Below, piece by piece: positions 8,185-41,802 of a DNA stretch of 64,000 nucleotides. Source of the DNA: Planctomycetota bacterium (GTDB taxonomy: Bacteria > Planctomycetota > UBA1135 > UBA2386); assembly GCA_965228735.1 (NCBI GenBank), contig OZ245838.1:1403011-1467010 (forward strand), in the 5' to 3' direction. How positions within the stretch are numbered: the first letter of the stretch is position 1; every line of letters begins with the position of its first letter. The notes under the pieces are model-generated. The model worked only from the letters and a program-made list of their open reading frames with translations, was not told the origin of the DNA and searched no databases. A program made the translations under genes and the position numbers.

Positions 8185-8199
8185 CTGGGTATCTCCCTG

Positions 8200-9816: not shown

Positions 9817-9819
9817 GCC

Positions 9820-13058: not shown

Positions 13059-14429
13059 ATGCATCTGCAACCTGCCCTCGATTCCCCCGCCCTTCGTCCC
13101 GCCACGGGGCGCGTGGCCCTGACCGCGACCCTGCTCGCGACCGCCGCCGGCTTCGCGATCCCGGGCACCGGCCTGGCGCGCGCCCAGGCGCAGCCGTTCG
13201 ATCGCGCGATCGTCGTATCCCAGCCCAACGTGGCCGGGTCGACCGTGGTCTGGGAGGTCGACCTGCAGACCGGCGCGTTCACCGCGCTGCCGCCGTTCTC
13301 GACGGACGCGTTCTCGCCGCTCGCCGTGGTCGCCGACCCGGTCGACAAGAGCCTGATCGTCGCGTTGGATCGCGGCACGCAGAGTCAGATCATGCGGCGC
13401 CGCTACGGGGCCAACCCGACGGAGGCGCTGCTCGCGACCGTGCCCGGTCGCGTCGAAGACCTGCTCATCGACCGGTTCGGCGACGTCACGCTCGTCATCG
13501 GCGGCAGCGCGGGCGGCGTCTTCCGGCTCGACCGACTCACGGGCGCGCTCGCGACCGTGCGCAGCATGCCGTTCGCGACCGCTGCCGCGACGCTGCAGGA
13601 CCTCGCGTGGTACGCGGTGATCGGCACTTCTGGCGCGGCCAACCCACCGCGGGATCCGCAGCTCGGCAACCTCGACCTCGGGGACGGCGCGTGGCTGCAG
13701 GGCCCGACGACGCTCACGGGCTTCACGCCGCGCGGCATCGTCGGCATGGTCGACATGCCGACCGCGGTGCCGCGCCAGATCCTCGCGCACGAGACCGGCG
13801 ACATGTCGATCTACTCGTGGGGCACGGCGAGCAACCCGCTGCTCGCGACGGTCACGCCGACGCTGCCGCCCGGCGGCATCGCGGCGATGAAGGCGCACGG
13901 CGGCCCCGCGTTCGTGCTCGGCGGCGCGGTCAACCCCAACCTCTACACGTTCGATCCGACGACGGCGATCGGCGGCGGCGTCGCGCTGACGATGGTCGCC
14001 GGGCCGCTGCCCGCGATCCCGGTCGACTTCACGATCATGCCGCTCGCTGCGGCCAGCCTCGTCACGTTCGGGCGCCCGTGCGGCGGCGCGGCCGAGCTGC
14101 GGATCGGGCAGACACCGAACGGTCCGCCCCAGCTCGGCAACGCGACGTTCGGCGTCGCCCTGCGGCAGGCGGAGCCGAACGGGTTGGCCTGGCTCGCGCT
14201 CGGCTTCGGCGAGACGACGTTCCCGTTCCCGAACGGTTGCGAGCTGCGCGTCACGCTCGACGCGGTCGTCGCGGCGCAGACGGACAGCACGGGCGACGCG
14301 AGCGCCACGATCCCGATCCCCAACCTCGCGAGCCTGCTCGGCGTGCGGTTCTTCGGCGAATGGCTGCAGCCGGACAACCTCCTGCCGTTCATGACGAGCG
14401 ACCTCGCGCGGATCGAGATCGGTCTCTGA
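13059..14429 (+). CDS. Secreted hypothetical protein: signal peptide, beta-propeller-like repeats, conserved two-Cys C-terminal domain
   Basis: Signal peptide ending ARAQA; beta-rich repeats; the C-terminal ~120 aa align by eye with the C-termini of 37034-39364 and 39679-41802. Confidence 0.7.
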   Translation: MHLQPALDSPALRPATGRVALTATLLATAAGFAIPGTGLARAQAQPFDRAIVVSQPNVAGSTVVWEVDLQTGAFTALPPFSTDAFSPLAVVADPVDKSLIVALDRGTQSQIMRRRYGANPTEALLATVPGRVEDLLIDRFGDVTLVIGGSAGGVFRLDRLTGALATVRSMPFATAAATLQDLAWYAVIGTSGAANPPRDPQLGNLDLGDGAWLQGPTTLTGFTPRGIVGMVDMPTAVPRQILAHETGDMSIYSWGTASNPLLATVTPTLPPGGIAAMKAHGGPAFVLGGAVNPNLYTFDPTTAIGGGVALTMVAGPLPAIPVDFTIMPLAAASLVTFGRPCGGAAELRIGQTPNGPPQLGNATFGVALRQAEPNGLAWLALGFGETTFPFPNGCELRVTLDAVVAAQTDSTGDASATIPIPNLASLLGVRFFGEWLQPDNLLPFMTSDLARIEIGL

Positions 14430-14453
14430 TCGCGTCGCACGGTGCGCGACGCG

Positions 14454-16466
14454 CTACTCGGGCAGCACCTGCCCGACCGCCGCGACGAAGTGCGGCACCG
14501 GGTCGACGAGATCGATGTCGATGCGATCGAACGTGACCGCGCGTTCGAGGTCGACGACGTGCGGCACGAGCCCGAGCAGCTGCGACACGGCGAGCAGATC
14601 GACCGCGACGTCGGCCGCGGGCGCCGCGTCCCCGGCGGAGCAGCGGATGCGATACCGGAAGCCCCCGGCGAGCTGCATCGCGATGCGACTCGCGGTCACC
14701 GCGGTGGCGAACGTCACGCGCAGGCCGCCGCGCTGCACGACGCGCACACGGTCGTCGTCGAACCACAGCGCGCCGACGCCGGGCAAGGTCGACGGTCGCA
14801 CCGACGCGACGGCGCTGCCGGCGACCTCCCGCCGTGCCGGGGTCAGGTACGGGCCTGCGGCGTAGCTCTCGAGTTCGGCATCGAACGCACCCGACCACAG
14901 CTGCCACAGCGCGGACCACCGCTCACCGGCGAACAACTCCCCCGCCGTCGCCTGGCGCAACGCGTCGTAGTAGCGGCGCAGTCCCGGATCGACGATGCGG
15001 TTGTCGCCGAACGCGATCGACTCGAGATAGCCGGCCGGGATCTCGCGCGGGATGTGGCCGACGCGCCACTCCGCGGTCGGGCTCGCGGGCAGGCGCGCGA
15101 GCAGCGCATCGCAGAGCAGCGGATCGAAGAAGCGCATCAGCGTCCCGCCTTCGAACGCGTAGATGCCGGCCTTGCCGGCCGAGGCGACGAGCGGGCGGGT
15201 CCGGCCGAGCTGCTGCAGCGACGCGGTCGCGCCGCCCGGCACCGGAATGTCTCGGGTCGGGGCGAACAACCCGACCTCGCGCACGTAGGCGCTGCGTTCG
15301 TCGAGGATGCCGCGGTGATGCCAGACCGGTTCGGTCTCGGACGCGGGCGCCACGAGCCACTTCGGAACGCCGCCGATGAAGCCGAGCGCGGCCGCCAGGA
15401 TCATCGCGAGCGCCGCGAGCCAGCGTCGGGACGGCACTGCGAACATGGGGGTCAGCAGCGCGAGCGCGACGAAGAACGGCGGCGAGAAGAACCGTCCCGC
15501 CATGAAATCGCCGCCGACCTTGACGATGTAGGCAACGTAGGCGAGCACGCCGACAGCGAGCCACCGGCTGCCCGCGCGCGGGTGCAAGAACGCGCTGACC
15601 ACACCCGCGCCGATCACGAGCAGCGTGAGCGGATCGTAGAGCACCATGAACACGACGTGGTGCAGGCCCTGCTCCAACATCGTGAGCGCCGGCAATCCGT
15701 GACTCAGCTTGGCATACGCCGTGATCGGCAGCGGCGTGCCGTAGTAGACCGTCGCGAACAGCAGCCACAGCCACAGCGGCAGGAGGCCGAGCAGGCACGC
15801 GATGCTCCACCGGGCGACGCCGGCCGCCCGCAGCGTCGACAGCAGCACCGGTCCGGCGAGCACGACGAGGTCGAGGCGCGTGGTCGCGAGCAGACCGACG
15901 AGCACCGCGAGGCGGCGCGTCTTCCGAACGGCGGCGGCGGCGCGAGCGTCACCTGCAAGGGACAAATCGGCCGGCCGCGATTCGACCGCGAGAACGAGGA
16001 ACGCCAGCAGGGCGAACGTGAGCGGGTTCTCGAGTCCGGACACGGCGAACTCGGTGAACGCCCGCGACCAGAGCAACAGCCACATGACCACCGCCGCGGC
16101 GACCGCGCCGCCGCTCCGACCACCGGATCGGTCGCCGCACCGGCCGGCGCGGAGAGCGAGCAGCGCCACGGCCGTGATCGCGAGCAGGTACGACAGCGCG
16201 ATCGTGCCGAAGTAGCACTCCCCCGTGCACAGCCGCGCGCCCGTGAGCAGCAGCATCCACAGCGGGTGCGTGTAGCACTGCAGCCGTTCGCCGGCGTTCC
16301 ACACGGCACCGTGCCCGGTCGCGATGTTCTCGACGGTGCGCAGCGTGATGTAGGTGTCGTCCCCGACCCAGGCGAGGCGCAGCAGCACCGCGGCGAGCAC
16401 GACGCCGATCAGCAACGCTGCGATGATCCAGGCCACGCGGGCTTGCGGCGACGAGAACGACGACAT
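14454..16466 (-). CDS. GT-C fold polytopic membrane glycosyltransferase (arabinofuranosyltransferase AftB-like)
   Basis: GDDTYITLRTVENIATGHGAVWNAGERLQCYTHPLW first-loop motif with DD, SGLENPL, GGDFMAGRFF, many TM helices; start ATG 16466. Confidence 0.65.
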   Translation of the reverse strand: MSSFSSPQARVAWIIAALLIGVVLAAVLLRLAWVGDDTYITLRTVENIATGHGAVWNAGERLQCYTHPLWMLLLTGARLCTGECYFGTIALSYLLAITAVALLALRAGRCGDRSGGRSGGAVAAAVVMWLLLWSRAFTEFAVSGLENPLTFALLAFLVLAVESRPADLSLAGDARAAAAVRKTRRLAVLVGLLATTRLDLVVLAGPVLLSTLRAAGVARWSIACLLGLLPLWLWLLFATVYYGTPLPITAYAKLSHGLPALTMLEQGLHHVVFMVLYDPLTLLVIGAGVVSAFLHPRAGSRWLAVGVLAYVAYIVKVGGDFMAGRFFSPPFFVALALLTPMFAVPSRRWLAALAMILAAALGFIGGVPKWLVAPASETEPVWHHRGILDERSAYVREVGLFAPTRDIPVPGGATASLQQLGRTRPLVASAGKAGIYAFEGGTLMRFFDPLLCDALLARLPASPTAEWRVGHIPREIPAGYLESIAFGDNRIVDPGLRRYYDALRQATAGELFAGERWSALWQLWSGAFDAELESYAAGPYLTPARREVAGSAVASVRPSTLPGVGALWFDDDRVRVVQRGGLRVTFATAVTASRIAMQLAGGFRYRIRCSAGDAAPAADVAVDLLAVSQLLGLVPHVVDLERAVTFDRIDIDLVDPVPHFVAAVGQVLPE

Positions 16467-16588
16467 CGGCGTGCCGTGATACGGCCGTGCCCGGCGCCAG
16501 CCAAGCGGCGACTGCCACGCAGCCATCCGGAAACGGATGCGCGGGAATCCCTTGCACCCGACCCACGCGATCCGTTGAGTGCCCGGCG

Positions 16589-19870
<3,282 letters not shown>

Positions 19871-19873
19871 CGG

Positions 19874-21031
19874 ATGGCGCTGCCCGAGATCCGACTCAAG
19901 GTGAAGGCCACGGGGCGGCACCCGTGGTTCTACCGCAAGATGATCCAGAAGCCGTCGGCCCGGCTGCCGGCCGGCAGCCCCGTGCGCGTGCGCGATCGCG
20001 AGGGCCGGCTCGTCGGCAGCGGCTTCTACAACCCGCGCGCCGAGCTCGCGCTGCGCATGTTCAGCGACCGCGCCGTCGGCGCAGACGCCGTCGAGCAACA
20101 CTTCGTTCAGGCGCTGAAGAACGCCGTCGAGCTGCGCGAACGCGTGCTCGATCTGCCGAGCGTGACCGACGCGTATCGTCTCGTGCACGCCGAGGCCGAC
20201 GGCTTCCCCGGCGTCGTGATCGACAGGCTCGGCCAGGCGATCGTCGCGCAGGTCAGTTCGCTCGGCATGCTCGAGCGGCTCGAAGGCGCCGGCGAGTGGC
20301 TGCTGCGCCACTTCCAGGGCAGCCAGCTGCTGCTGTTGTTGGACAAGGACTGGTCGGTGCGCGAAGGGCTGCCCAAGGTGCCCCGGCCAGAGCCCGTGGC
20401 GACGACCGTGCAGGAGCACGGCATCACGTACGCGGTCACGGCCGGCACCGGGCACAAGACGGGGTTCTTCGCCGACCAGCGCGACAACCGCCAGCTCGTC
20501 CGGCAGCTCGCGCGCGGCAAGCGCGTGCTCGATCTGTGCTGCAACAGCGGCGGCTTCGCGCTCAACGCGGCCGCGGGCGGCGCCAAGCACGTGCTCGCGG
20601 CCGACCTCGACGAGGCCATGGTCGCGCAGACGGAACACAACGCGGGGCAGAACGACCTGCGCCTCGAGGTCGCGCACGCCGACGCGTTCGACCTGCTGCG
20701 CGACCTCGAACCGGCCCGGCACGACCTGATCGTGCTCGATCCGCCGAAGTGGGTCCGCGGCAAGGAAGAGCTCGAGGGCGGCCTGCGCCGCTACGCGGAC
20801 CTGAATCGACTCGGCCTCGAGAAGGTCGCGCCGGGCGGCCTCGTCTTGACGTGCTCCTGTTCGGGCGCCGTCCGCGAGGGCGACTTCCTGCGGATGCTCA
20901 CCGGCGCGGCCGCGCAGGCCCGGCGCGACGTGCGGGTGCTGCAGCTGCGCGGCGCCGGTGCCGATCACCCGGTCGCGCTCGAGTGCCCCGAGACGCGCTA
21001 CCTCAAGGTCGCGCTATTGCAGGTGCGTTGA
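19874..21031 (+). CDS. rlmI: RlmI-like class I SAM-dependent rRNA methyltransferase (PUA + MTase)
   Basis: GRHPWFY, EADGFPGVVID, GHKTGFFADQRDNR, VLDLCCNSGGF, IVLDPP, DHPV...ETRYLK. Confidence 0.85.
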   Translation: MALPEIRLKVKATGRHPWFYRKMIQKPSARLPAGSPVRVRDREGRLVGSGFYNPRAELALRMFSDRAVGADAVEQHFVQALKNAVELRERVLDLPSVTDAYRLVHAEADGFPGVVIDRLGQAIVAQVSSLGMLERLEGAGEWLLRHFQGSQLLLLLDKDWSVREGLPKVPRPEPVATTVQEHGITYAVTAGTGHKTGFFADQRDNRQLVRQLARGKRVLDLCCNSGGFALNAAAGGAKHVLAADLDEAMVAQTEHNAGQNDLRLEVAHADAFDLLRDLEPARHDLIVLDPPKWVRGKEELEGGLRRYADLNRLGLEKVAPGGLVLTCSCSGAVREGDFLRMLTGAAAQARRDVRVLQLRGAGADHPVALECPETRYLKVALLQVR

Positions 21032-21048
21032 CGCACTGACGCTCGGGC

Positions 21049-21642
21049 TCAGTCAGAACCATCCTCGCCCCACGCGCGCACGAGCTCTTCGGACTCGTTC
21101 TCGACGCCGAGCGCGTCGGCGATGCGGTTGATGTAGTTGAAGTAGCCGATCACCTGCGCCGCGTCGTGGATCGCCGGATCCGAGAACCCGGCCGCGCGCA
21201 GATCCGTGACCGCGCGTTCCGATCGCGCTGCGGGACTCGTCGTCATGTGCTCGGCGAACGCGCACAGCGCCCGGTCCTCCGCGCGAAGCGCCGCATGCCG
21301 CCAATCGCGCGCCACTGCCTCGATCAGGGCGTCCGCGGCGTCCGCCGCAGCGCCGTCGTCGACCTCGGCCCGGAGGTCGTGGGCATGGGCGCGCGTTCAA
21401 TAGACGCAGCCGTTGCGCCGGCTCGTGACGACGGCGAGAAGCTCGCGCTGCCAGCGCGACAGCTCGGACTCGCCGAACATCACGGCGCGATACATCGCCA
21501 TCGACGCCTTCAGCACCACCGGGTTCGGCGTCATGATCCGCACGATGTTCCAGACGCGACCGGCGCGCTTCCGCGCGAGTTCGAGCTCGCGCGCGGCCGC
21601 GCCGGTTGCCTCGGCGTCCTCGACCTGTCGAATGAACGGCAT
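21049..21642 (-). CDS. AhpD/CMD-like peroxidase with in-frame UGA at a CxxU motif: probable selenoprotein (197 aa, Sec82)
   Basis: Track ORFs 21397-21642 and 21049-21315 are in the same frame. Read-through gives ...VTSRRNGC-V-Y-[UGA]-TRAHAHDL..., the AhpD NxCxYCxxxH motif with UGA at the second Cys. The C-terminal half ends YFNYINRIADALGV, typical of the family. Confidence 0.82.
21360..21399 (-). promoter_or_regulatory. Putative bacterial SECIS hairpin directly 3' of the UGA
   Basis: On the minus strand, UGA (21397-21399) is followed by a 17-nt spacer, then CGACCTC-[CGGGCC]-GAGGTCG: a perfect 7-bp stem whose loop begins 24 nt after the UGA, with G at loop position 2. Confidence 0.65.
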
Positions 21643-21666
21643 GGTCGTCTACTGTACCGCCGCCCG

Positions 21667-22260
21667 ATGACCGCGTTCGACGACATGCTGCAGAAGTGCC
21701 TCGATCCGGTCCCCGCGTCGTGGCCGGTGAGCGAGCGGCGCAACGCCGCCGTGCTGTGCCCCATCGTCGACCGGAACGGCGTCGATCACGCGCTGTTCAC
21801 CGTGCGACCCGGCAACCTGCGACGGCACGCGGGCCAGATCGGCTTTCCGGGCGGCATGCAGGAGCTCGATGAGGCCCCGGCCACGACGGCACTGCGCGAG
21901 TGCCACGAGGAGATCGGCGTGCCAGCGGACGCGGTTCAGCTGCTCGGCGCGGTCGCGACGCGCGAGAGTTCGTCGCGCATCGACGTGCACTGCCTCGTGG
22001 GGCGGGTGGCGCCCGTCGAGCTCGTGCTCGCCGCGGACGAGGTCGAGCGCGTGATCTACGTGCCGATGCCCGAGTTGCTCGATCGCTCTCGCTGGGCCCA
22101 ACGGCCACCGCCGATCCGCGTGAAAGGAACGCAGCCGCCGACGAGCCCGCACTTCCGCTTCGGCGACGACCTGCTCTGGGGCCTGACGGGCCGCTTCGTG
22201 TTCGAGCTCGTGACCCGCGTCGACGGCCCGGATCACTCGAAGACCGGCAGCGCGCAGTAG
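21667..22260 (+). CDS. Nudix hydrolase, CoA pyrophosphatase subfamily
   Basis: AAVLCP, HAGQIGFPGG, TALRECHEEIG Nudix box, LWGLTG. Confidence 0.9.
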   Translation: MTAFDDMLQKCLDPVPASWPVSERRNAAVLCPIVDRNGVDHALFTVRPGNLRRHAGQIGFPGGMQELDEAPATTALRECHEEIGVPADAVQLLGAVATRESSSRIDVHCLVGRVAPVELVLAADEVERVIYVPMPELLDRSRWAQRPPPIRVKGTQPPTSPHFRFGDDLLWGLTGRFVFELVTRVDGPDHSKTGSAQ

Positions 22261-23228: not shown

Positions 23229-23286
23229 GTGGGTTCCAACGGTCCGACTCGCGCCGCGGTTCAGCTCCGGTTCACCCCGCGCGCGA

Positions 23287-24312: not shown

Positions 24313-24328
24313 GCCCGAACGGCGAAGA

Positions 24329-28299: not shown

Positions 28300-28317
28300 G
28301 CTTGCTTACCGCTTTCG

Positions 28318-29507: not shown

Positions 29508-29622
29508 AGCGGAGGCGCACCGGAGTCTGCCGAACGGTACCGCTCCGTACGGTACCGGGTTCACGTTGCCGGCCGTGAGGGCGTTGCCTCACGGCTGGCG
29601 TCCGGCCGGCCGGCAGCTTCCC

Positions 29623-31314: not shown

Positions 31315-31439
31315 GCGGAATTCGTGTCTATGGCCCGCAGTCTACGCACGGGCTACGGCAGCGGCGAACCGCAGTTGCCGCCTTTTTCCAGCCAAGCCGC
31401 GGTCACTACCGCGGCAGACAAGGTGCGGTCACTACCGCG

Positions 31440-32657
31440 TCAGCCGGCAACCACGAGCAGATCCCGCACGAACGCCTCGGACATCTCGAGCGTGAAGTCG
31501 AGGTCGTCGTGGCGCACGACGATCCAGCCGTCGCCCACCACGACCTTGCGCCAGTCCTTCTTCGGGTGCCCGACGGGCGTGAGCTCGATCGACGCGATGT
31601 GCGGGCCGTAGCGCTGCAGCAGCTCGCGCAGGCCGCGGTGCTCGACGACCGTGGACCCGGCCCCCTGCGCCCGCTTGAAGATCATCGACGCGTTGTACTT
31701 CGGCTTCGTGTCCTGACTCAGCCGGCCATAGCAGATCGCCTCGGCCCAGCCGCGAAACAGGTCGATGTCGTAGCCGTAGTTCATCGCGTGGACGAGCCGC
31801 GCGCCCGGCGGCCGACCGCCGATCTCGCCGAAGACCGCCTCGCCGCTCGCGGTCCGGAACCACTCCATGTGCGTGAACCCGGACTCGAACCCGAGCGCCT
31901 GCAGCACGCCGTGCCCGAGCTCGACCCCCGGCCGCGGCAGCTCCGCGTGGATGTCCTTGAGCACGATGTTCTGCATCGAGATCCACTCGTGCTGCGCGAG
32001 GATCATCGGCTTGGGCTTGTACCACGACACGTTCTCGAACAGCACCTTGCCGCCGGCGCACACCGTGTCGTAGGTCAGCTCCTCGCCCTCGACGTACTCC
32101 TCGACCGAGATCTCCTCGACGTGGCGCGTGCGCGCGAGCGCCTGCTCGAACTCGGCCCGATCCCCGCAGCGGAACGTGTTCTGGCTGCCGGCCCCGTCGA
32201 TCGGTTTGACGATCGCCGGATACCCGACCTGCTCGGCGACGGCCCACGCCTCGCTCTGCGTGCGCGCGCGCCCGTGCCGCGGCACGCGTAAACCGGCGGC
32301 CTCGACGGCCTGCTTCATCGCTTCCTTGTCGCGCACGACGGCGGTCTGCGCCATCGTCATGCCGGGCACGTCGAACGCGTGGCGCAGTCGCGCGGCCAGG
32401 TACATGAGGCGTTCCCACGAGCACTCGACCCGATCGACGCTGCGGCCACGGAGCCAGCTGCGCACGCGTTCGACCGCGGCCTCTTCGTCGGCGAACGAGC
32501 ACTGCAGGTAGTCGGCGAGGACCTCGCGCGCCTCCTGCGGCAACGCCGCCGCCGGTTGGTCGCCGACGCCGTAGACGCGGGCACCGACCTGGGCGAGTCC
32601 GCGCGCGAACAGCGGCATCTCGGCGGGAAAGCCAGGACTGAGAAAGACGACGTTCAT
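31440..32657 (-). CDS. ATP-grasp ligase, paralog A
   Basis: RDKEAMK, GYPAIVKPIDGAGS, EEYVEGEE, THMEWF, EIGGRPPG; start ATG 32657. Confidence 0.88.
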   Translation of the reverse strand: MNVVFLSPGFPAEMPLFARGLAQVGARVYGVGDQPAAALPQEAREVLADYLQCSFADEEAAVERVRSWLRGRSVDRVECSWERLMYLAARLRHAFDVPGMTMAQTAVVRDKEAMKQAVEAAGLRVPRHGRARTQSEAWAVAEQVGYPAIVKPIDGAGSQNTFRCGDRAEFEQALARTRHVEEISVEEYVEGEELTYDTVCAGGKVLFENVSWYKPKPMILAQHEWISMQNIVLKDIHAELPRPGVELGHGVLQALGFESGFTHMEWFRTASGEAVFGEIGGRPPGARLVHAMNYGYDIDLFRGWAEAICYGRLSQDTKPKYNASMIFKRAQGAGSTVVEHRGLRELLQRYGPHIASIELTPVGHPKKDWRKVVVGDGWIVVRHDDLDFTLEMSEAFVRDLLVVAG

Positions 32658-32700
32658 GGTGCTTGCTGCGCGGGTCCCTGAGCGAACAACTTGCGAGCGG

Positions 32701-33954
32701 TCAACTCCCGAGCTCGACACGCACGGTGGTGAGAATGCGGTCGGCAGCCGCCTGCACGACCTCGGTGTCCGGGTGCCGGACGATCACATGCCCCTCGCCC
32801 TCGTAGCTCGCGCTCGGCGCCTGACCGACCTCCGGCATCATCGCCTCGACGATCAGCGGGCCGAGCTCCTGCTCGATCTCCCGCACGCCGTGGACGGCCG
32901 TCACGCGCCGCGCGCCGCCGCGCCCCCGCTTGCCGTCCTGGCCGGCGAGCTGACCGCGCAGGTAGACCGCGGCGACCGCGTACTGCCGCGCCGGCGGCTC
33001 GAACCGTTCGAACACCATGAGCTCGGCGAACGCGCGATACATGTCGCGGTCGTAGGCGTAGCTCATGAGCGACACGAACTGCGCGCCCGGCGGCCGCGCG
33101 GCGACCTCGCCGATCGCGATCGAACCGTCGTCGCGCCGGAACCACTCCATGTGGGTCATCCCGGTCCACATGCCGAGCGCCTGCAGCGCCGCGGGACCGA
33201 AGCGGTGGATCTGGGCGTACTCCGGCCCGTCGATCTGGCGCGGGAGCACGACGCACCACTGGATCCACGGGTTGTCCATCACCGTGAGCGGCGTCGGGTG
33301 GTAGCTCGAGATGCTGTGCAGCACATGCATGCCGTGCAGCGTGATCGAGTCGAACGAGAACTCGCGCCCCTGCACGAACTCCTCGACGAGCACCTCGCGG
33401 CCGGGTGCGGGCCGCGTCGCCTGCAGGAAGTGCCGCAGGTCGTCCTGGTTCTCGCAGCGTGACGTCGACTTGGCCCCGGCCCCGGCCGGCGGTTTGGCGA
33501 CGAGCGGATAGCCGATCGCGCTCGCGAACGCCTCGGCCATCGCCGCCGAGCTGCAGAGCCGGTGCCGCGCGGTGCCGATCCCGTGCGAGCTGAGCACCTC
33601 CTTCATGCGCGCCTTGTCGCGGAAGTTCCTGGCCTCCTGGCGATCCATACCGCGGATGGACAGCTCCTCGCGCACCTGGCCGAGCGGCTCCTGCAGCGGC
33701 TCGAGGATGCCGAGCAGGCGTTCGACCTCACCGTGGGCCGCGCCCAGCTCGCGCACCGAACGCGCGATCACCGCGGGATCGAGGGCGTCGCCGACCGTGC
33801 GCAGGTCCACGAGCCGATCGGTCAGGTCCGCGGGCAACGCGGATCGTTGGTCCTGCGTCACGACGCTGAGCTCGACGCCCGGCAGCGCGGCGACCGCGCG
33901 CGCGAATCGCAGCGAGCTTTGCATTCCGAACGGGATGACGAAGACGACGTGCAT
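32701..33954 (-). CDS. ATP-grasp ligase, paralog B
   Basis: RDKARMK, GYPLVAKP..GAGA, EEFVQGRE, THMEWF, EVAARPPG; start ATG 33954. Confidence 0.88.
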   Translation of the reverse strand: MHVVFVIPFGMQSSLRFARAVAALPGVELSVVTQDQRSALPADLTDRLVDLRTVGDALDPAVIARSVRELGAAHGEVERLLGILEPLQEPLGQVREELSIRGMDRQEARNFRDKARMKEVLSSHGIGTARHRLCSSAAMAEAFASAIGYPLVAKPPAGAGAKSTSRCENQDDLRHFLQATRPAPGREVLVEEFVQGREFSFDSITLHGMHVLHSISSYHPTPLTVMDNPWIQWCVVLPRQIDGPEYAQIHRFGPAALQALGMWTGMTHMEWFRRDDGSIAIGEVAARPPGAQFVSLMSYAYDRDMYRAFAELMVFERFEPPARQYAVAAVYLRGQLAGQDGKRGRGGARRVTAVHGVREIEQELGPLIVEAMMPEVGQAPSASYEGEGHVIVRHPDTEVVQAAADRILTTVRVELGS

Positions 33955-34098
33955 GAGAGCGGAGCGGTCGCGCATGCTATTGCGACCACCGCGCCGTCGC
34001 TACCTTTGAGCCACCGCTCTCGCGCGGAGCGCCCATCGTTGCGAACTTCGGCGACACCACGCTCGCGTCGTGGCGGCCGGCATGCGAGCATCGCAGTC

Positions 34099-35565
34099 AT
34101 GCGTCCCCTGCGCATCTGCCTCGCCGCCTCGGAGCTGTCGCCGTACGCCAAGACCGGCGGCCTCGCCGACGTGGTCACGGGTCTCGGCCGGTATCTCGGC
34201 CGGGCGGGCCACGAGACCCGCATCTTCGTGCCGCTGTATCGCAGCATCGCGGAGTCGGACCTCCAGACCACGGTGCTCGAACGAGCTCAGGACATCGACG
34301 TCCGGTTCCCCGACCGCACCGTCCGGTTCTCGATCCGGACCGCGACGTTGCCAGGGCAGGAGAACGGCAGCTCGCCGCAGGTGTGCTTCGTCGACTGCCC
34401 CGAGCTCTACCACCGGGCCGGCCTCTACACCGAGGACGGCGACGAGTCGCTGCGCTTCGCGACGCTCAACCGCGCCGTGCTCGACACGTGCCAGCGCCTC
34501 GGCTGGGCGCCGGACGTGATCCACTGCAACGACTGGCACACGAGCCTGATCCCGCTGCTGCTGCGCACGACGTATCACTGGGACAAGCTGTTCCGCAAGA
34601 CCAGGACCCTGCTGACGATCCACAACATCGGCTACCAGGGCTCGTTCGCCGACAGCCACCTCAAGACGATCGGCCTCGACGATCAGCGCGCACACCTGCA
34701 CCACGGCGACCTGCGCGACGGGCGCTTCGCGTTCCTCAAGACCGGCGTGCTGCACGCCAACAAGCTGTCCACGGTCTCGGTGACGTACGCCGAGGAGATC
34801 CAAACCGCGGAGTACGGCATGGGGATGGAAGAGCTGCTGCAGACGCGCAAGCGCGACCTGGTCGGCATCGTCAACGGCGTCGACTACGGCGACTGGGATC
34901 CGGCGACCGATCCGCTGATCCCGCACCACTACTCCGCCGACGATCCGAGCGGCAAGGCCAAGATGAAGGCCGCGCTGCTGCAGCGCATGGAGCTGCCGCA
35001 CGACCCGCGCGCCCCGGTGTTCGGCGTCGTCTCGCGCCTCACGGCGCAGAAGGGCTTCGAGCTGTTCGCCGACTCGATCCCGGTCTTCCTGCAGCGCGAG
35101 GACATGCGCCTCGTCGTGCTCGGCTCGGGCGAGAGCAAGCACGAGACCTACTTCCAATGGCTGCGCGACACGTGGCCCGACAAGGTCGGGCTCTACCGCG
35201 GCTTCCACAACGAGCTCGCCCACTGGATCGAGGCCGGCAGCGACGTGTTCCTCATGCCGTCGCGCTTCGAGCCGTGCGGGCTCAACCAGATGTACAGCCT
35301 GCGCTACGGCACCGCGCCGATCGTGCGCAAGACCGGCGGGCTCGCCGACACGGTGCAGCCGTGGGATCCCGCGGCCCGCACCGGCACGGGCTTTCTGTTC
35401 GAGGAGTACACGAGCCAGGCGCTCGCCGGCACGATCGACTGGTGCCTGCGCAACTGGCGCGACCAGGAGGGCTGGCGGCAGTTGATCAAGAACGGCATGC
35501 AGCGCGATTTCTCCTGGGACCGCCAGGGCGCCGAGTACGTGAAGCTCTACCGTGAGCTGGCCTGA
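34099..35565 (+). CDS. glgA: Glycogen/starch synthase (GT5)
   Basis: SELSPYAKTGGLADV, HCNDWHT, TIHNIGYQG, GIVNGVDY, MPSRFEPCGLNQMYSLRYG, TGGLADTV. Confidence 0.96.
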   Translation: MRPLRICLAASELSPYAKTGGLADVVTGLGRYLGRAGHETRIFVPLYRSIAESDLQTTVLERAQDIDVRFPDRTVRFSIRTATLPGQENGSSPQVCFVDCPELYHRAGLYTEDGDESLRFATLNRAVLDTCQRLGWAPDVIHCNDWHTSLIPLLLRTTYHWDKLFRKTRTLLTIHNIGYQGSFADSHLKTIGLDDQRAHLHHGDLRDGRFAFLKTGVLHANKLSTVSVTYAEEIQTAEYGMGMEELLQTRKRDLVGIVNGVDYGDWDPATDPLIPHHYSADDPSGKAKMKAALLQRMELPHDPRAPVFGVVSRLTAQKGFELFADSIPVFLQREDMRLVVLGSGESKHETYFQWLRDTWPDKVGLYRGFHNELAHWIEAGSDVFLMPSRFEPCGLNQMYSLRYGTAPIVRKTGGLADTVQPWDPAARTGTGFLFEEYTSQALAGTIDWCLRNWRDQEGWRQLIKNGMQRDFSWDRQGAEYVKLYRELA

Positions 35566-35633
35566 GCCGGACACGGCTCCGCCAGACCTCACCGCTCGAC
35601 CTCACCGGCCACCGACCGCAGAAACCCCACCCC

Positions 35634-36854
35634 ATGCACGTCGTTCTCGTCGAACCTGCCTTCCCAGCCAACCAGCGCGAGTTCCTGCGCGGCCTGCTCT
35701 CCACGGGCGCGCGCATCTCCGCGATCAGTGAGCGGCCACCCGAGGCGTTGCCCACCGACCTCCGAGAAGGACTGTTCCAGCACGAACGCATCCGGTCCGT
35801 CGTCGACGAACGCGCGCTCGCCGACGCGGTCAAACGGTTGTCACAGCGCGCGCGCGTCGACCGACTCGAGGCGACGATCGAGGCCCACGTGATGGCCGCG
35901 GCCCACGTACGCGAGCACCTCGACATCCCCGGCACGACGAGCAAGACGGCGTGGCTCTGCCGCGACAAGCCGGCGATGAAGGACGCCGTTCGCGAAGCCG
36001 GGATCGCGTGTGCCGCGAGCGCGCGCGTGACGAGCCCCGAGGACGCGCGCGCGTTCGCCGAACGCGAAGGCTACCCGTTGATCCTCAAGCCGCTCGACGG
36101 CGCCGGCGCGTCCGGCACGCACAAGGTCGACGACGTCGACCAGCTCGAGTCGGTGATCGCGGAGCTCGGCGTCGACCGCGGGCGCGAGGTCGCGATCGAG
36201 GAGTTCCTGTCCGGCCACGAGGGTTTCTACGACTCTCTCTGCGTCGCGGGGAAGCCGGTGATCGACTTCGCGTGTCACTACTTCCCCAACGTGCTCGAGG
36301 CGATGCGCACGCGCTGGATCTCGCCGCAGATCCTCGTGACGAATCGCATCGGCGAATCGACCTACGAAGAACTGCGTACGATGGGTCAGGCCGCGATCTC
36401 GGCGCTCGGCATCTGGACGTCGGCAACGCACATGGAGTGGTTCTTCGGCGAGAAGGGCCTGAAGTTCTCCGAGATCGGCTGCCGCCCGCCGGGCGTCGGC
36501 GTGTGGGACCTCTACTGCTCGGCCAACGAATTCGATCTCTACGCGGCGTGGGGCCACGCGATCGTGCACGAGGACGTGCCGTTCGAACCGTCGCGCAAGT
36601 ACGCCGCCGGGATGATCGCGCTGCGCCCCGAGAAGGACGGGACGATCACGGGCTACGACGGGCTCGACGAACTGCAGCGCCGCTACGGCGAGTGGATCCT
36701 CGACGTGCACACGCCGCCGCCGGGCACCAGGACGCAGGGCGTCGAGGCGGGCTACATGGCCAACGCCTGGATCCGCATGCGGCACCCGGACTACGACGCG
36801 CTGCGTTCGATGTTCGATACCGTCGGCGAGTTGGTGAAGGTGCGCGCGCGCTGA
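35634..36854 (+). CDS. ATP-grasp ligase, paralog C
   Basis: RDKPAMK, GYPLILKPLDGAGA, EEFLSGHE, THMEWF, EIGCRPPG. Confidence 0.9.
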   Translation: MHVVLVEPAFPANQREFLRGLLSTGARISAISERPPEALPTDLREGLFQHERIRSVVDERALADAVKRLSQRARVDRLEATIEAHVMAAAHVREHLDIPGTTSKTAWLCRDKPAMKDAVREAGIACAASARVTSPEDARAFAEREGYPLILKPLDGAGASGTHKVDDVDQLESVIAELGVDRGREVAIEEFLSGHEGFYDSLCVAGKPVIDFACHYFPNVLEAMRTRWISPQILVTNRIGESTYEELRTMGQAAISALGIWTSATHMEWFFGEKGLKFSEIGCRPPGVGVWDLYCSANEFDLYAAWGHAIVHEDVPFEPSRKYAAGMIALRPEKDGTITGYDGLDELQRRYGEWILDVHTPPPGTRTQGVEAGYMANAWIRMRHPDYDALRSMFDTVGELVKVRAR

Positions 36855-36987
36855 GGACCGACGCGCCGCCGACACGGCCGAGCGTACGAACACCCGGGAC
36901 CGTAGAACGGCCCGGGCATCATCCATCGCGGTCATTGCCCCCGAGTTCGTCCGTAAGCACCTCTCGATGGCGCGTCCGGCTCCTGCA

Positions 36988-36996
36988 GTGCTACAA
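36988..36996 (+). promoter_or_regulatory. GTGCTACAA motif (extended -10-like) upstream of PKD paralog 1
   Basis: The identical 9-mer occurs at 39631-39639 at nearly the same distance from the second paralog's ATG. Confidence 0.5.
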
Positions 36997-37033
36997 CAGT
37001 GGTCTGTCTCTTCCGCTCCAACTTCGTTTCATC

Positions 37034-39364
37034 ATGAGTGCGACACCTGTCCGTTTTCTCGTCCCGGCCATCCTGGCTGCGGGCCTCTCCTCGAGCCTCA
37101 CGGCGCAATTCACCGTCGTCGTGCCCGACGGCACGGCCAACGCGCCGGGCAACTCCTCCAACGCGTTCCCCTGGGGCACCACCGCCGGGTCCTTCCCCGG
37201 TCTGCGGCTGATGGCGACCTACGGTGCAGTCAACTTCACCAACCAGGCCGTCAACTCGCCGATCCTGATCACGGGCGTCAAGTGGCGGCCGAACGACACC
37301 TCCGCGGCCGTCGGCGGCGGCCAGTTCAACGCCGGGACGATCGAGATGTCGACCTCGGCCGTCGGCCAGGCCAACGTCACGACCAACTTCGCCACCAACC
37401 ACGGTGTGGATCGCACGGTCGTCTATGACGCGGCGGTCAACGGGCCGGTCGTGCACACGCCGTCGCCCGGCTCGGGGGCCTGGACGCCGCAGTCCTGGGT
37501 CGTCGACGTGACGCTCGCCACGCCGTTCCTCTACGACCCCACGTCCGGCGACCTCGTCGTCGACGTCGACTACCCGACCGGCAGCTTCTCCGGGGCGGGC
37601 GTCGGCCAGATGGACATCCAGTCGACGGGTAGCAACTCGTCGCGCGTCTTCGCCAGCACGAACTACCCGGCCGCCAACGGCACGACCTCGAACCACGGCC
37701 CGGTCATCGAGCTGACCTACGTGCCGCCCGTCGGCGTGTACGCGAACTTCAGCGCCAACGTGCAGACCGGCCCGTCGCCGCTGATGGTCAACTTCACCGA
37801 CACGAGCTTCAGCAGCCCCAACCCGATCACGTCGTGGGCCTGGGACTTCGAGAACGACGGCACCGTCGACTCGACCGCCCAGAACCCGTCGCACACCTAC
37901 GCGTCGTGCGGCGAGTTCGACGTCAGCCTGACGGTCACCGACAGCCTGAACCAGTCCTCGACCCTGGTCAAGAACGCCTTCATCGCCGTCGACCCGCTCG
38001 CGGCCGACTTCACGGCGACGCCGACGTTCGGCGCCGAACCGCTCATCGTGAACTTCACGGACACGTCGACCGGCGGGTCCGCGGTCCCGATCATGTGGGA
38101 GTGGGACATGGACGGCGATGGTGTCTTCGACATCATGGGCACCACGCCAGCCGAGCAGAACCCCGTCTGGGTCTACCTCGGCGGCACCTACACCGTCACG
38201 CTCCGCACGACCTTCGCCTGCACGAGCGGCGTCGGTGTCGTAACGGAGACCAAGACCGACCTGATCACGTGCGTCGGCGCGACGACCAACACGCAGGGCG
38301 CGGACCTCTTCGAGTTCCAGTTCAACGAAGTGCGCGGCGACCAGGCCTTCAACGCCGCGTCGACGACCGCGGCGCCGGCGTCGGCGACCGTCAGCTCGAC
38401 GACCTGGCAGGTCGACCCGGGCCGCCTGGACTTCAAGGGCGACGGCCCGACGGGCGCGCTCGGCAACGGCGGCCTCGTCGCGACCGGCCACGCGCTCGAT
38501 CAGCAGGGCAGCATGACGATCTGCTGGTGGCAGCGCCTGAACACGCCCCCGGGCGCCTCGCTCGCGTACGTGTTCGGCGGCTCGGGTGGCAGCTTCCGCT
38601 GCTTCACGGGCGGCGTCGCGGGGAACACCCTGTGGTACCGCGGCAGCTCCATCGGTGACGTGCAGGCGAGCTACGACGTCCAGGCCAACGCCGGCGTCTG
38701 GGAGCACGTCGCGCTCGTCGTCGACGACACCGCGGGCACGGCCGACTGGTACTTCAACGGCGTGTTCGACACGTCGACCGCGTTCCCGGCCGGCACCCAC
38801 ACGGCGACCAACACCGACTACCACGTCGGCTACCACACGAGCACCGCGTCGATCTACACCTCGGGCTACGACCTGGACGACTACCGGCACTACAACAACG
38901 CCCTGACCGCGACCGAGATCGCGGCCATCGCGTCCGGGACCGAGCACGCCGCGAGCACGAACTACGGCAGCGGTTGCGCCGGTTCGGCGGGCACCCCGTC
39001 GATCTCCGGCAACGAAGCGCCGGACGGCAGCGGCCCCATCGGCACGCCGACCTACAGCGTCAACCTCAGCGGCGCCCAGCCGAACGCCGGTGCGTTCCTC
39101 GCGTTCGGCTTCCTCGCGGGCAGCAACCCGCTGCTGCCGTTCGACCTCGGCGCGGTCCTCGGTGCCCCCTACGCGGGTTGCGAGATCCACACCGACGCGA
39201 GCTCGGCGCTGTTCCTCCTGACGGATGCCTCCGGCTCCGCGTCGGTGCCGCTGCCGATCCCGGGCAACGGTCAGTTCACGCAGCTGCACATCTACTGTCA
39301 GTACATGGTGCTCGACAGCACCGTGGGCTCCGTTTCGGACGCCCTCGACGTCAACATCAAGTAG
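37034..39364 (+). CDS. Secreted protein: N-terminal domain, 2 PKD domains, LamG-like domain, conserved two-Cys C-terminal domain (776 aa)
   Basis: Signal peptide MSATPVRFLVPAILAAGLSSSLTAQ; PKD motifs VNFTDTS..WAWDFENDG..QNPSHTY and VNFTDTS..WEWDMDGDG; WEHVALV..WYFNG..LDDYRHYNNALT (LamG). Confidence 0.88.
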   Translation: MSATPVRFLVPAILAAGLSSSLTAQFTVVVPDGTANAPGNSSNAFPWGTTAGSFPGLRLMATYGAVNFTNQAVNSPILITGVKWRPNDTSAAVGGGQFNAGTIEMSTSAVGQANVTTNFATNHGVDRTVVYDAAVNGPVVHTPSPGSGAWTPQSWVVDVTLATPFLYDPTSGDLVVDVDYPTGSFSGAGVGQMDIQSTGSNSSRVFASTNYPAANGTTSNHGPVIELTYVPPVGVYANFSANVQTGPSPLMVNFTDTSFSSPNPITSWAWDFENDGTVDSTAQNPSHTYASCGEFDVSLTVTDSLNQSSTLVKNAFIAVDPLAADFTATPTFGAEPLIVNFTDTSTGGSAVPIMWEWDMDGDGVFDIMGTTPAEQNPVWVYLGGTYTVTLRTTFACTSGVGVVTETKTDLITCVGATTNTQGADLFEFQFNEVRGDQAFNAASTTAAPASATVSSTTWQVDPGRLDFKGDGPTGALGNGGLVATGHALDQQGSMTICWWQRLNTPPGASLAYVFGGSGGSFRCFTGGVAGNTLWYRGSSIGDVQASYDVQANAGVWEHVALVVDDTAGTADWYFNGVFDTSTAFPAGTHTATNTDYHVGYHTSTASIYTSGYDLDDYRHYNNALTATEIAAIASGTEHAASTNYGSGCAGSAGTPSISGNEAPDGSGPIGTPTYSVNLSGAQPNAGAFLAFGFLAGSNPLLPFDLGAVLGAPYAGCEIHTDASSALFLLTDASGSASVPLPIPGNGQFTQLHIYCQYMVLDSTVGSVSDALDVNIK

Positions 39365-39383
39365 GACTCGCGTCCTGCCGACC

Positions 39384-39405
39384 GCGCGCGCCGACCGGCG
39401 CGCGC
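39384..39405 (+). terminator. GC-rich hairpin (gcgcgcgccg-ac-cggcgcgcgc) after PKD paralog 1; no U-tract
   Basis: Perfect inverted repeat about 20 nt after the stop codon. Confidence 0.35.
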
Positions 39406-39630
39406 CTCACGGGCTCGATCGTGCGACGCGCACGCTCGGGCCCGTTCCACGTCCGGCTGCTTCGATTCGGCCGCTGCCGTCGGCGATCGCTCGTCAGCTC
39501 GCGAACCGACACCCGTGGCGACCCGCGTGACGATTCACCCAGGACCGAAAACCCGGCGATTCGCGGCCGCTTGCGGACTTGCCCCGAAGTTGTCCAAACG
39601 GTTCAACCTGCGCACGACTGCGCAACGGGG

Positions 39631-39639
39631 GTGCTACAA
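39631..39639 (+). promoter_or_regulatory. GTGCTACAA motif upstream of PKD paralog 2
   Basis: Duplicate of 36988-36996. Confidence 0.5.
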
Positions 39640-39678
39640 GAGCCGCTCGTAACCTTCCACGCTCCCCATCAGAACACC

Positions 39679-41802
39679 ATGAGTGCGACACCCTTCCGAC
39701 TCCTCGCTTCCACCGCCCTGCTGACCGCCGGGCTCGCCACCGGGCTCGACGCGCAGCAGACCGTCGTCATCCCCAACGGCATGGCCAACGCTGCCGGCAG
39801 CACGGCCAACAACTTCCCCTTCGGCTACACGGGCACCGCGTGGCCGGGCCTGCGCACGATGGCGTGCTACGACACGTCGCACTTCACGCAGCAGGGCATC
39901 AACCAGCCGATTCTGATCCAGTCGATCTCCTGGCGCGCCAACGACACGACGGCGTCCTGGACCGGCGGCACGCACCCGAACGCGACGATCGCGATGGCGA
40001 GTGCCGCGGTCGACTACACCGCGGTCACGACCACCTTCGCGTCGAACGTCGGCCCGGACTACGCGGTCGTCTACACCGGTCCCGTCACGGTCACGGCCGG
40101 CGCGGGCGCCGGCACGGGCACGCCGTCGCCGTTCTACATCACGGTGCAGATCCCCGGCGCGGGCTTCCTCTACGACCCGACCGCGGGCAACGACCTGATC
40201 GTCGACTGTGACAACATGCTCGGCGGCTGGTCCGGCGGTTCGACGACCTCGCACGATGTCGACGGCAGCCCCAGCGCGATGGCGAGCCGCATCTATGCGA
40301 GCTCGAACTACCCGACGGCCAACGGCACGACCCAGAACCACGGCATCGTGATCGAACTCGGCTACGTCCCGGCCTCGGGTCTCTACGCCAACTTCGACTC
40401 GGACGTCCAGACCGGCAGCTCGCCGCTGACGGTGAACTTCACCGACACGTCGTTCACGAGCACGCCGACCGGCGTGACCACGTGGGCGTGGGACTTCGAG
40501 AACGACGGCACGATCGACTCGACGCTGCAGAACCCGTCACACGTCTACCCGGCGTGCGGTTCGTACGACGTCGCGCTGACCGTCGACGACGGCGTCTTCC
40601 CGACCTCCACGATCGTCAAGAACGCGTTCATCCAGCCGGACCTGGTGCCGATCACCCCGAGCTTCTCGGTCACGCCGATCGCGGCGAACGTCTACCAGTT
40701 CATGGACACGTCGACCCCGACGCCCACGGCGTGGGAGTGGGACTTCGACAACGACGGCATCGTCGACTCGACGGGTCAGAACCCGGCATGGGCATTCCCG
40801 TCGCCGTGCGGCGCCGAGGAGATCCGCCTCGCGGTCTACAACCAGTGTCACGGCCCGTGGGAGACCGTGCAGTCGCTCGCGATCGCGCCCAACACGTTCT
40901 CGACGACGTTCGTGCCGAACAACGGTCTCTCCGGCAACGGCGCCGGCAACCTGTTCGACATCGACGTCACGAACCCCCGCGGCGTGAACATCTGCGGCCT
41001 CACTCTGACGCCGTACTCGACGACTGCCGGCAACCCGATCACGTGTGAGGTCTGGGTGACCGACGCGCCCGGCGGCGTGCAGGGCAACTACAACGACCCG
41101 AGCGTCTGGCGCCTGATGACGACCGGCTCCGGCATCGACACCGGCACGACGGGCGCGCTGACGGCCTTCGACCTCAACCAGCCGCTCTACCTGCCGTTCG
41201 GCCAGTACGCGATGGCGATCGGCACGAGCCAGGGCCTGCGTTACCAGACGCTGAGCGCCGGCCCGACGACGGTCGTCGGCCCGGACTTCACGATCACGGC
41301 GGGCCGCAGCGCTTCCACGCTGTTCACGGCCGGCATCGACAACCGCGCCATCTGCGGCGAGCTGGCCTACAGCATCGCGGGCGGCGGCGACCTCGCGGGC
41401 TTCGGCCTCGAGGGCATCGGTTGCCCGGGCTCGCTGGGTCAGTCGACGATCACCGCGAGCGGCCCGCCCCAGATCGGCACGACCTTCACGGTCACGGTCG
41501 ACAACCTGCCAGCCAACGCCGCGATCCTGATGACCGGCTTCAGCAACACGACGTCGGTGCTCGGCAGCCTGCCGCTCAGCACTGCGCCGTTCGGCGCCCC
41601 CGGCTGCGCGCTCAACATCAGCCCGGACGTCAACACGTTCCTGGCCGGCACGGGCAACACCGTGAGCTCGAGTCTGACGATTCCGGCCAACGCGGTGCTG
41701 ATCGACGTGCTGATGTTCCAGCAGGCCGTCGTCCTCGACCCGGGTTTCAACGCCGCCAGCGCAGTCGGCTCGGACAGCTCCGCGGTCTACGTGGGCCTGT
41801 AG
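39679..41802 (+). CDS. Secreted PKD-domain protein with conserved two-Cys C-terminal domain (707 aa), tandem paralog
   Basis: Signal peptide MSATPFRLLASTALLTAGLATGLDAQ; PKD motifs WAWDFENDG..QNPSHVY and WEWDFDNDG..QNP. Confidence 0.88.
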   Translation: MSATPFRLLASTALLTAGLATGLDAQQTVVIPNGMANAAGSTANNFPFGYTGTAWPGLRTMACYDTSHFTQQGINQPILIQSISWRANDTTASWTGGTHPNATIAMASAAVDYTAVTTTFASNVGPDYAVVYTGPVTVTAGAGAGTGTPSPFYITVQIPGAGFLYDPTAGNDLIVDCDNMLGGWSGGSTTSHDVDGSPSAMASRIYASSNYPTANGTTQNHGIVIELGYVPASGLYANFDSDVQTGSSPLTVNFTDTSFTSTPTGVTTWAWDFENDGTIDSTLQNPSHVYPACGSYDVALTVDDGVFPTSTIVKNAFIQPDLVPITPSFSVTPIAANVYQFMDTSTPTPTAWEWDFDNDGIVDSTGQNPAWAFPSPCGAEEIRLAVYNQCHGPWETVQSLAIAPNTFSTTFVPNNGLSGNGAGNLFDIDVTNPRGVNICGLTLTPYSTTAGNPITCEVWVTDAPGGVQGNYNDPSVWRLMTTGSGIDTGTTGALTAFDLNQPLYLPFGQYAMAIGTSQGLRYQTLSAGPTTVVGPDFTITAGRSASTLFTAGIDNRAICGELAYSIAGGGDLAGFGLEGIGCPGSLGQSTITASGPPQIGTTFTVTVDNLPANAAILMTGFSNTTSVLGSLPLSTAPFGAPGCALNISPDVNTFLAGTGNTVSSSLTIPANAVLIDVLMFQQAVVLDPGFNAASAVGSDSSAVYVGL

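Follow-up and report, generated by a model that had tools for sequence, protein, structure and literature searches.

An unnamed domain at the end of about 300 exported planctomycete proteins is probably a tether to the cell envelope

In a 64,000-nucleotide stretch of DNA from a Planctomycetota bacterium (the window), three genes for exported proteins, here called A, B and C, end in similar sequence. The original prediction was that these ends are a common two-cysteine domain that sorts or anchors its bearers, and the locus raises the question of whether this is so and what the domain does. The features concerned are these:

3-11646 and upstream of there: T2SS/T4P-like operon.
13059-14429, plus strand: gene A, exported protein of 456 aa by its translation, with a passenger that has no Pfam match and then the C-terminal tail.
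14052-14429, plus strand: tail domain of A (94.4 bits; the HMM envelope spans residues 389-512 of the open reading frame, and the stop codon is added).
37034-39364, plus strand: gene B, exported protein of 776 aa with signal peptide, unnamed N-terminal domain, PKD, Laminin_G_3 and tail.
38948-39364, plus strand: tail domain of B (87.0 bits; tail-only BLASTP to A, E = 2e-9).
39679-41802, plus strand: gene C, exported protein of 707 aa, a tandem paralog of B with a different middle part, then the tail.
41395-41802, plus strand: tail domain of C (92.3 bits; the copy used for the AlphaFold2 model).

Sequence comparison confirms that the tails of A, B and C are one homologous domain of ~130 residues. 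Besides the A-B match listed above, BLASTP of tail against tail pairs B with C (E = 2e-8) and A with C (E = 0.002), and 20 columns are invariant across the three aligned tails. With no other input than the three tails, an HMM recovered 95 further ORFs of the genome in one pass, with E values down to 1e-27, which excludes chance as the source of the likeness. The HMM envelopes (14052-14426 in A, 38948-39361 in B and 41395-41799 in C; bit scores above are against the HMM iterated over the genome) differ by only ~15 bases from the positions first proposed. The N-termini of all three proteins, judged by eye, resemble signal peptides as expected, and Pfam finds the anticipated PKD and LamG domains in B (PKD_4, 3e-14; Laminin_G_3, 6e-14) and likewise a PKD in C. 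Gene A, whose passenger was first read as a propeller and is at most a putative one, as no family was matched in Pfam or NCBIfam, has the high third-position GC that is usual for coding sequence here. The three proteins had also been described as otherwise different; this holds for the middle parts of B and C, but the two are paralogs with 51% identity over their first 389 residues, which comprise the N-terminal domain and PKD (E = 9e-106).

The tail is by no means confined to these genes. When the HMM was iterated over the whole 7.19 Mb genome, 296 ORFs were found to carry the domain, one copy apiece, in line with the dozens to hundreds of matches foreseen. Among coding-like ORFs with a length of 100 aa or more, their share is ~6.8%, or roughly one gene in fifteen. 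Their passengers fall into 105 unrelated clusters, far from a few paralogs. Many have unknown folds; the others include Kelch propellers (the biggest group, with 47 members), PKD/LamG proteins, peptidases of the S8 and M14 families and a copper oxidase that is GlxA-like. About 11 proteins have no passenger, only a signal peptide and the tail, a form that recurs elsewhere in P0004 and P0009. The genes are scattered at a density of one per 24 kb with only mild tandem clustering, which speaks against a genomic hotspot that might hold a machine. PEP-CTERM-like ends number about 2 in the same genome, versus the 296 tails.

The position of the tail is strongly biased. It ends within 10 residues of the stop in 271 of the 296 proteins (92%), while in 13 it lies directly behind the signal peptide and in 12 the protein runs on C-terminally for a further 16-45 residues; no tandem or internal copy was found among the 296 ORFs, and the last residue of the tail is not conserved among the genomic copies. 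The expectation that the tail is always C-terminal is thus correct for the great majority, but not for the 13 N-terminal copies. Signal peptides are mostly canonical in the 40 best-scoring members, inspected by eye; heuristics detect them in 52-65% of tail proteins versus 25-37% of controls, and are too crude for a firm rate.

To the databases searched the domain is new. Neither Pfam nor NCBIfam matches the tail of A, B or C at E ≤ 1, the SLH, dockerin and CBM families of Pfam included; a PDB sequence search returned nothing below E = 0.49, and a literature search did not find the domain described. Because the family has 296 members, is 92% C-terminal and never internal, comes with signal peptides in most of its best-scoring members and matches no known model, its role as a shared localisation module, for anchoring or for sorting, is well supported.

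An AlphaFold2 model of the tail of C, made from a 94-sequence alignment, has a pLDDT of 97.4 and a pTM of 0.90 and predicts nine beta strands in an all-beta sandwich with no close solved relative. An Ig-like fold with a disulfide had been anticipated; the sandwich agrees with this, but its structural matches are generic Ig-like ones (NIS1, NPC2, SoxYZ, nanobodies; TM ≤ 0.46), and the structure is therefore uninformative on binding. A guess from strand order at which pole of the sandwich bears the conserved loops was dropped, since a 30-residue loop makes such reasoning unsafe without coordinates. Both cysteines are present in 174 of the 296 copies, one in 35 and neither in 87, so the two-cysteine description applies to most copies and the cysteines are not obligatory. 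Their co-occurrence (odds ratio 60, p = 6e-40) fits an extracytoplasmic disulfide that is absent from many copies.

To see how far the family extends, we consider public data, in which 30,736 cluster representatives match the tail at E ≤ 1e-3, with C-terminal placement in 149 of the 150 best matches. Named loci were found with a consensus sequence, the family alignment having no conserved stretch of 7 residues, and all 57 come from metagenome-assembled genomes of uncultured Planctomycetota. The tail is restricted to certain lineages of this phylum: it is carried by 60 of 301 sampled Planctomycetota genomes, and in a ranking by RpoB the positive genomes cluster among the nearest relatives. The DNA of the window itself occurs in sequencing runs labelled coral and macroalgae metagenomes, as well as in runs labelled with eight other organisms; runs with several different organism labels contain it at full length, and source material may therefore exist. 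Among RNA runs, none was found that contains these genes.

Relatives of three passenger families from other lineages show what the tail can be exchanged for. In the family of one passenger, L060, the place of the tail is taken by a lipobox with a Gly linker, by a T9SS Por_Secre_tail (TIGR04183, 27.7 bits) or by a C-terminal membrane helix with basic residues; in the M14 family by FlgD_ig/T9SS-like tails or a GC-type dockerin; and in the GlxA-like family by IPTL-CTERM, a GC-type dockerin or FlgD_ig. N-terminal placement is also inherited. It is kept in 24 cluster representatives of the GlxA-like oxidase (49-100% identity) and in 7 further homologs of the L060 passenger (8 sequences with the query's own record). 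Such stability in orthologs favours a position-tolerant docking or anchoring module over a strictly C-terminal export signal.

The tail most likely tethers exported proteins to the cell envelope. We lean, with modest confidence, towards an autonomously folding, mostly disulfide-stapled beta-sandwich that acts as a shared envelope-localisation module by docking non-covalently to a common envelope partner; docking itself, its non-covalent mode and the location of the partner in the envelope are what we infer. Under this proposal, Sec would export the tail-bearing proteins, the tail would fold in the oxidising periplasm, and it would then dock its passenger to one common partner, be it a protein of the outer membrane or surface or a glycan of the envelope, such that one mechanism could display or retain about 300 different proteins. 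Six observations are counted in its favour: the domain probably folds independently, judging from the confident model of the isolated domain and from the tail-only proteins; it is present in single copy on a very large number of unrelated passengers; it is accepted at either terminus; it is exchanged with known anchors on orthologous passengers; its cysteines co-occur; and the family is large beyond this genome too. Other points count against it. First, 92% of tails end 0-7 residues before the stop, and a C-terminal export signal would look equally strict. Second, T9SS tails, which are export signals as well as anchors, are among the exchanged modules. Third, the exchange is an argument from equivalent position, and many homologs lack any additional module (in the oxidase family, 79 of 120). 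Fourth, the generic matches of the fold give no hint of what it binds.

The first two of these objections lead to an alternative that we regard as unlikely: that the tail genuinely directs export or sorting, like the T9SS C-terminal domain, and is recognised in folded form by an outer-membrane translocon and removed by a peptidase, with the cargo perhaps joined covalently to a surface glycolipid. The extreme C-terminal position of 271 single copies on very diverse cargo would fit such a signal, as would the similar placement of the best public matches, and it is T9SS-type tails that stand in for the tail on orthologous passengers of FCB-group bacteria. An export signal is, however, harder to reconcile with N-terminal placement that evolution has preserved in two passenger families or more, with the 12 copies that have C-terminal extensions, with proteins made of the tail alone and with the variable last residue. 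Moreover, hhalign of family alignment A2 against 14 T9SS/FlgD_ig-type tails gave a probability of 0.07%. SprA_N (PF14349) was not found in 8 tail-rich genomes, although this model was also silent in all 14 control genomes. Membership of the T9SS families proper was rejected, as 0 of 94 copies match TIGR04183, PF18962 or FlgD_ig at E ≤ 0.1, there is no profile similarity and the tail is not always C-terminal.

If the partner were not in the envelope, the tail might bind an outside target such as the surface of prey or a polysaccharide from algae or a host, as a carbohydrate-binding or adhesion module that brings enzymes and adhesins to one shared substrate. Carbohydrate-binding modules typically look like this, a beta-sandwich in single copy at one end or the other of a secreted enzyme. 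The tail also occurs by itself, and the DNA of the window is present in the coral and macroalgae runs, along with those labelled as eight other organisms. Nevertheless, we consider external binding improbable. The passengers are mostly not carbohydrate-active enzymes, with Kelch propellers, peptidases and PKD proteins among them; the modules exchanged for the tail in orthologs are cell anchors rather than substrate binders; no CBM family of Pfam matches; and we know of no carbohydrate-binding family with anywhere near 300 copies in one genome.

The suggestion that the T2SS/T4P-like operon of the window serves the tail, which would then be a recognition domain for this neighbouring system, did not survive comparison across genomes, and we now hold it to be very improbable. 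Gene A lies 1.4 kb from the first gene of the operon, and when the TPR protein of the operon was searched for first, it matched 27 of 301 genomes, 26 of them tail-positive; this co-occurrence is explained by low search sensitivity together with phylogeny. The better-conserved giant pseudopilin was found in 57 of the 60 genomes tested, and among these are all 26 tail-free neighbours at similar RpoB distance; the link fails because the operon occurs in these relatives too. Nor is adjacency conserved: a tail gene adjoins 4 of 20 syntenic copies of the operon (3 in genomes of this bacterium's own family and 1 in another genome, G191), gene A here being a fifth case, which is about what the density of tail genes would produce.

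A generic structural cap, oligomerisation domain or folding aid with no role in localisation, hinted at by the lead of Kelch propellers among the passengers and by one copy of 94 that marginally matches the galactose-oxidase-like E-set cap PF09118 (E = 0.043), is very improbable, since the tail sits on 105 unrelated clusters and also alone, orthologs swap it for anchors and not for other caps, and the GlxA-like oxidase has its own PF09118 domain in addition to the tail; identity with PF09118 was rejected on the same grounds, the tail not being confined to Kelch propellers.

To return to docking, one unnamed domain on about one gene in fifteen, and in more than 30,000 public protein clusters, is left blank by current annotation. 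For a large uncultured part of the Planctomycetota, a family model would pick out the proteins that are exported and probably kept at the surface. The tail points to an anchoring or sorting partner, which could be sought by comparison with close families that are free of the tail. It is conceivable, and we put this forward tentatively, that certain uncultured Planctomycetota run an undescribed, proteome-scale system of surface display in which 6-7% of genes plug through one disulfide-stapled 'universal dockerin' into a single envelope receptor, perhaps a scaffold made of protein or a glycan specific to the lineage. If true, diderms would have their own counterpart of cohesin-dockerin or SLH anchoring, and this would explain how a very large exoproteome is organised without a T9SS.

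Among known systems, the T9SS type A domain (TIGR04183/PF18962; PF13860) of Bacteroidota and other FCB-group bacteria is similar to the tail in being a folded Ig-like beta-sandwich, in single copy at the very C-terminal end of many Sec-exported proteins that are otherwise unrelated, and it stands where the tail would be on orthologous passengers (P0181, P0338, P0277). It differs in that the tail has no sequence or profile similarity to it, is ~130 residues long with nine predicted strands (the TIGR04183 model has 72 positions), has a disulfide pair in most copies and is placed N-terminally too; to our knowledge, T9SS is not known in Planctomycetota. The GC-type dockerin (NF041540), found on proteins labelled Planctomycetota or Phycisphaerales, is likewise a cysteine-containing C-terminal module of diverse secreted proteins in the same phylum; it is named as an anchor, and orthologs of the M14 and GlxA-like passengers have it instead of the tail (P0237, P0380). 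However, its model has 67 positions, its ends are of the '...CFQ..F..GCP' type and it is unrelated in sequence; NCBIfam finds no match to it on A, B or C, and the family was not found in G000. It is nearly absent from tail-positive genomes and tail-free neighbours together (4 of 64), and because the neighbours also lack it, a test for complementary distribution is uninformative.

IPTL-CTERM (TIGR04174), PEP-CTERM/exosortase and lipobox signals also cause many exported proteins to be retained at the envelope, and the passengers have orthologs with IPTL-CTERM or a lipobox. Such signals are short and rely on a membrane helix or a lipid, whereas the tail is a soluble, folded domain that has no hydrophobic helix; a PEP-CTERM or IPTL-CTERM identity was rejected because the tail is predicted to be all-beta, ends in a strand and matches no TIGR model. 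We know of no cohesin-like partner for the tail, which differs from SLH domains and clostridial dockerins in having no Pfam match and another fold class. By analogy, non-covalent docking of the SLH or dockerin-cohesin kind is nevertheless the mechanism that we judge most likely: there too a terminal module, at either end, docks many enzymes to one envelope partner, a likeness in behaviour rather than homology.

The window lies on a complete chromosome of 7.19 Mb (69% G+C), and three of its genes for exported proteins, A, B and C, end in a common domain of ~130 residues, which we call the tail:

Gene A, 13059-14429, 456 aa, nothing seen by Pfam
Gene B, true start 37034, to 39364, 776 aa, Pfam PKD and Laminin_G_3
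Gene C, true start 39679, to 41802, 707 aa, Pfam PKD

When the last ~130 residues of the three proteins are aligned, 20 columns are invariant, and pairwise BLASTP matches the tails of A and B (E = 2e-9), B and C (E = 2e-8) and A and C (E = 0.002). The common C-terminal domain of the original prediction is thus real, but the three proteins are not otherwise different, as had been claimed: B and C are tandem paralogs, 51% identical across their first 389 residues. The tails, like gene A as a whole, have no Pfam match, and NCBIfam gives no match anywhere in A, B or C.

The N-terminal parts of B (window 37106-37740) and C (39754-40386) have another domain in common; it too is unnamed, is ~150-210 aa long and shows the motifs N-x-F-P-(F/W)-G and FLYDPT.G.DL.VD. 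Pfam has no match to it, and of the 21 ORFs with this domain in the genome, 18 bear the tail as well. Two neighbours of the tail genes lack the tail: a tricorn-type protease with PD40, Tricorn C1/PDZ and S41 domains (16589-19870, + strand) and a protein of 995 aa that combines BNR/sortilin-like repeats with a sialate O-acetylesterase domain (42661-45648, - strand).

An HMM built from the tails of A, B and C and iterated over the six-frame ORFs of the whole genome enlarged its set from 95 to 296 ORFs, a number within the dozens to hundreds that had been named as support. Each ORF has exactly one copy, and together they account for about 6.8% of the genome's 4,333 coding-like ORFs (≥100 aa). The tail is placed as follows:

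Tail ≤10 residues from the stop: 271 copies, 223 of which stop 1-2 residues short
Tail immediately behind the signal peptide, then the passenger (the non-tail part): 13 copies
Tail, then a 16-45-residue extension: 12 copies
Signal peptide and tail domain, nothing else: about 11 proteins

The expectation that the tail is always C-terminal therefore holds for the 271 copies near the stop, but not for the 13 behind a signal peptide or the 12 with an extension. Most of the 40 best-scoring tail proteins have a canonical signal peptide ending A-Q. The passengers fall into 105 clusters, including 47 Kelch propellers, PKD proteins, S8 subtilases, an M14 carboxypeptidase and ELWxxDGT-type repeat proteins, and many have no Pfam match. 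Tail genes are dispersed around the chromosome with mild tandem clustering, and the expansion of the family is old, since identity between copies is low (median 26%). Some 12 proteins with an N-terminal NxFPF-type domain and the tail have ~35 extra residues behind it, with ends such as '...VVTLFDHN' or '...VIVLEHN' (for example, genome coordinates 2282327-2283466, 4294128-4295378 and 5469596-5470912).

AlphaFold2, run on the tail with an alignment of 94 copies from this genome, predicts a nine-strand all-beta sandwich (pLDDT 97.4, pTM 0.90). Foldseek against the PDB returned only generic Ig-like sandwiches with TM-scores ≤0.46. A PDB sequence search gave no match, none of the 94 copies has a meaningful Pfam match, and a literature search turned up no description of the domain. 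The 'two-cysteine' label fits 174 copies with both cysteines, but 87 lack both and 35 have a single one; such co-occurrence (odds ratio 60, P = 6e-40) would be expected of a disulfide pair kept or lost as a unit. In five M14 homologues from other genomes (P0213, P0214, P0217, P0220 and P0222), the tail belongs to a diverged branch whose end reads '...CNA(L/I/V)D(Y/F)...GC', with two additional cysteines close to the C-terminus, pointing to a second disulfide in certain lineages.

At E ≤ 1e-3 the tail profile matches 30,736 of 1.84 billion cluster representatives, 15,640 of them at E ≤ 1e-10, and in 149 of the 150 best matches the domain ends ≤4 residues from the C-terminus. Scanning one genome of each species with a pattern from the family consensus confirmed 57 tail loci, all from metagenome-assembled genomes and nearly all labelled Planctomycetota. 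In a sample of 301 genomes spread evenly across the phylum, the tail is present in 60 genomes and in 52 of 238 genera, including all 16 sampled from the source genome's own order; first-pass candidates often numbered 100-300 in a genome. When the 301 genomes are ranked by RpoB similarity, the tail-positives lie among roughly the 80 nearest relatives, interleaved with several tail-free families. Between 90 and 100% of sampled words from window 37034-41802 were found in assemblies of public runs labelled as six coded organisms, and smaller parts in runs whose labels name coral metagenomes, macroalgae metagenomes or one of two further coded organisms; the source bacterium apparently often accompanies samples or cultures of marine eukaryotes.

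The tail had also been suggested, as a speculation, to be served by an operon in the window:

T2SS/T4P-like operon, window 3-11646 and further upstream to genome ~1,397,500, - strand, ten genes

Its products are an FHA protein, a PilM-like protein, a 270-aa protein, a 904-aa TPR protein, five pseudopilins (229, 318 with LamG, 1735, 407 and 156 aa) and an exported protein of 495 aa. The gene order is the same in each of the 20 relatives whose loci were fetched, which span seven families. In a first search, 26 of 27 matches to the TPR protein were in tail-positive genomes, an association that arose from the search's low sensitivity together with phylogenetic relatedness. The giant pseudopilin (1,735 aa) could be detected in 57 of 60 genomes, and all 26 neighbours without the tail are among them. 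Only 4 of the 20 loci have a tail gene next to the operon, three from the source genome's own family and one from another genome. We therefore reject the operon as the tail's dedicated partner; it is general to the clade.

The strongest functional clue comes from the modules that orthologous passengers carry in other lineages. The ~775-aa passenger L060 has an N-terminal tail in this genome and in seven further homologues; relatives elsewhere carry instead a lipoprotein lipobox with a glycine linker behind it, a T9SS Por_Secre_tail (TIGR04183, above cut-off), a membrane helix at the C-terminus together with basic residues, or a 'YLPLV'-type end. Three L060 homologues end '...VYLPLVLK' (P0180), '...LFLPIVTTD' (P0190) and '...WLPIVLNGE' (P0191). 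The M14 carboxypeptidase bears the tail in 37 of 120 relatives, and others have FlgD_ig/T9SS-like tails or a GC-type dockerin. A GlxA-like copper oxidase keeps its N-terminal tail in 24 representatives, at identities down to 49%, and other relatives end in IPTL-CTERM, a GC-type dockerin or FlgD_ig. Because relatives of all three passengers carry these modules, the tail and recognised envelope anchors or sorting signals can replace one another. Judged by its placement, the tail functions at either protein terminus; in passengers with an N-terminal tail the extreme C-terminus is itself conserved, which accounts for the tail's move to the other end.

On balance, we favour non-covalent docking of the tail to an envelope partner common to these proteins. 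That the tail is a true export or sorting tag, one of the two original proposals besides anchoring, is unlikely: anchor exchange and either-end placement fit a dockerin- or SLH-like docking module better than a signal that needs a free C-terminus. Binding of an external substrate we consider less likely still.

Among known systems, PEP-CTERM-like ends are nearly missing from this genome (about 2), and the GC-type dockerin is neither present in it nor used in tail-free neighbours. A search for SprA gave no match, but its control was equally silent. Membership among T9SS C-terminal domains was rejected, with no model match and no profile similarity (probability 0.07% in profile-profile comparison with 14 T9SS/FlgD_ig-type tails). 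The T9SS C-terminal domain is nonetheless the tail's closest analogue in behaviour, although the N-terminal copies of the tail violate its position rule.
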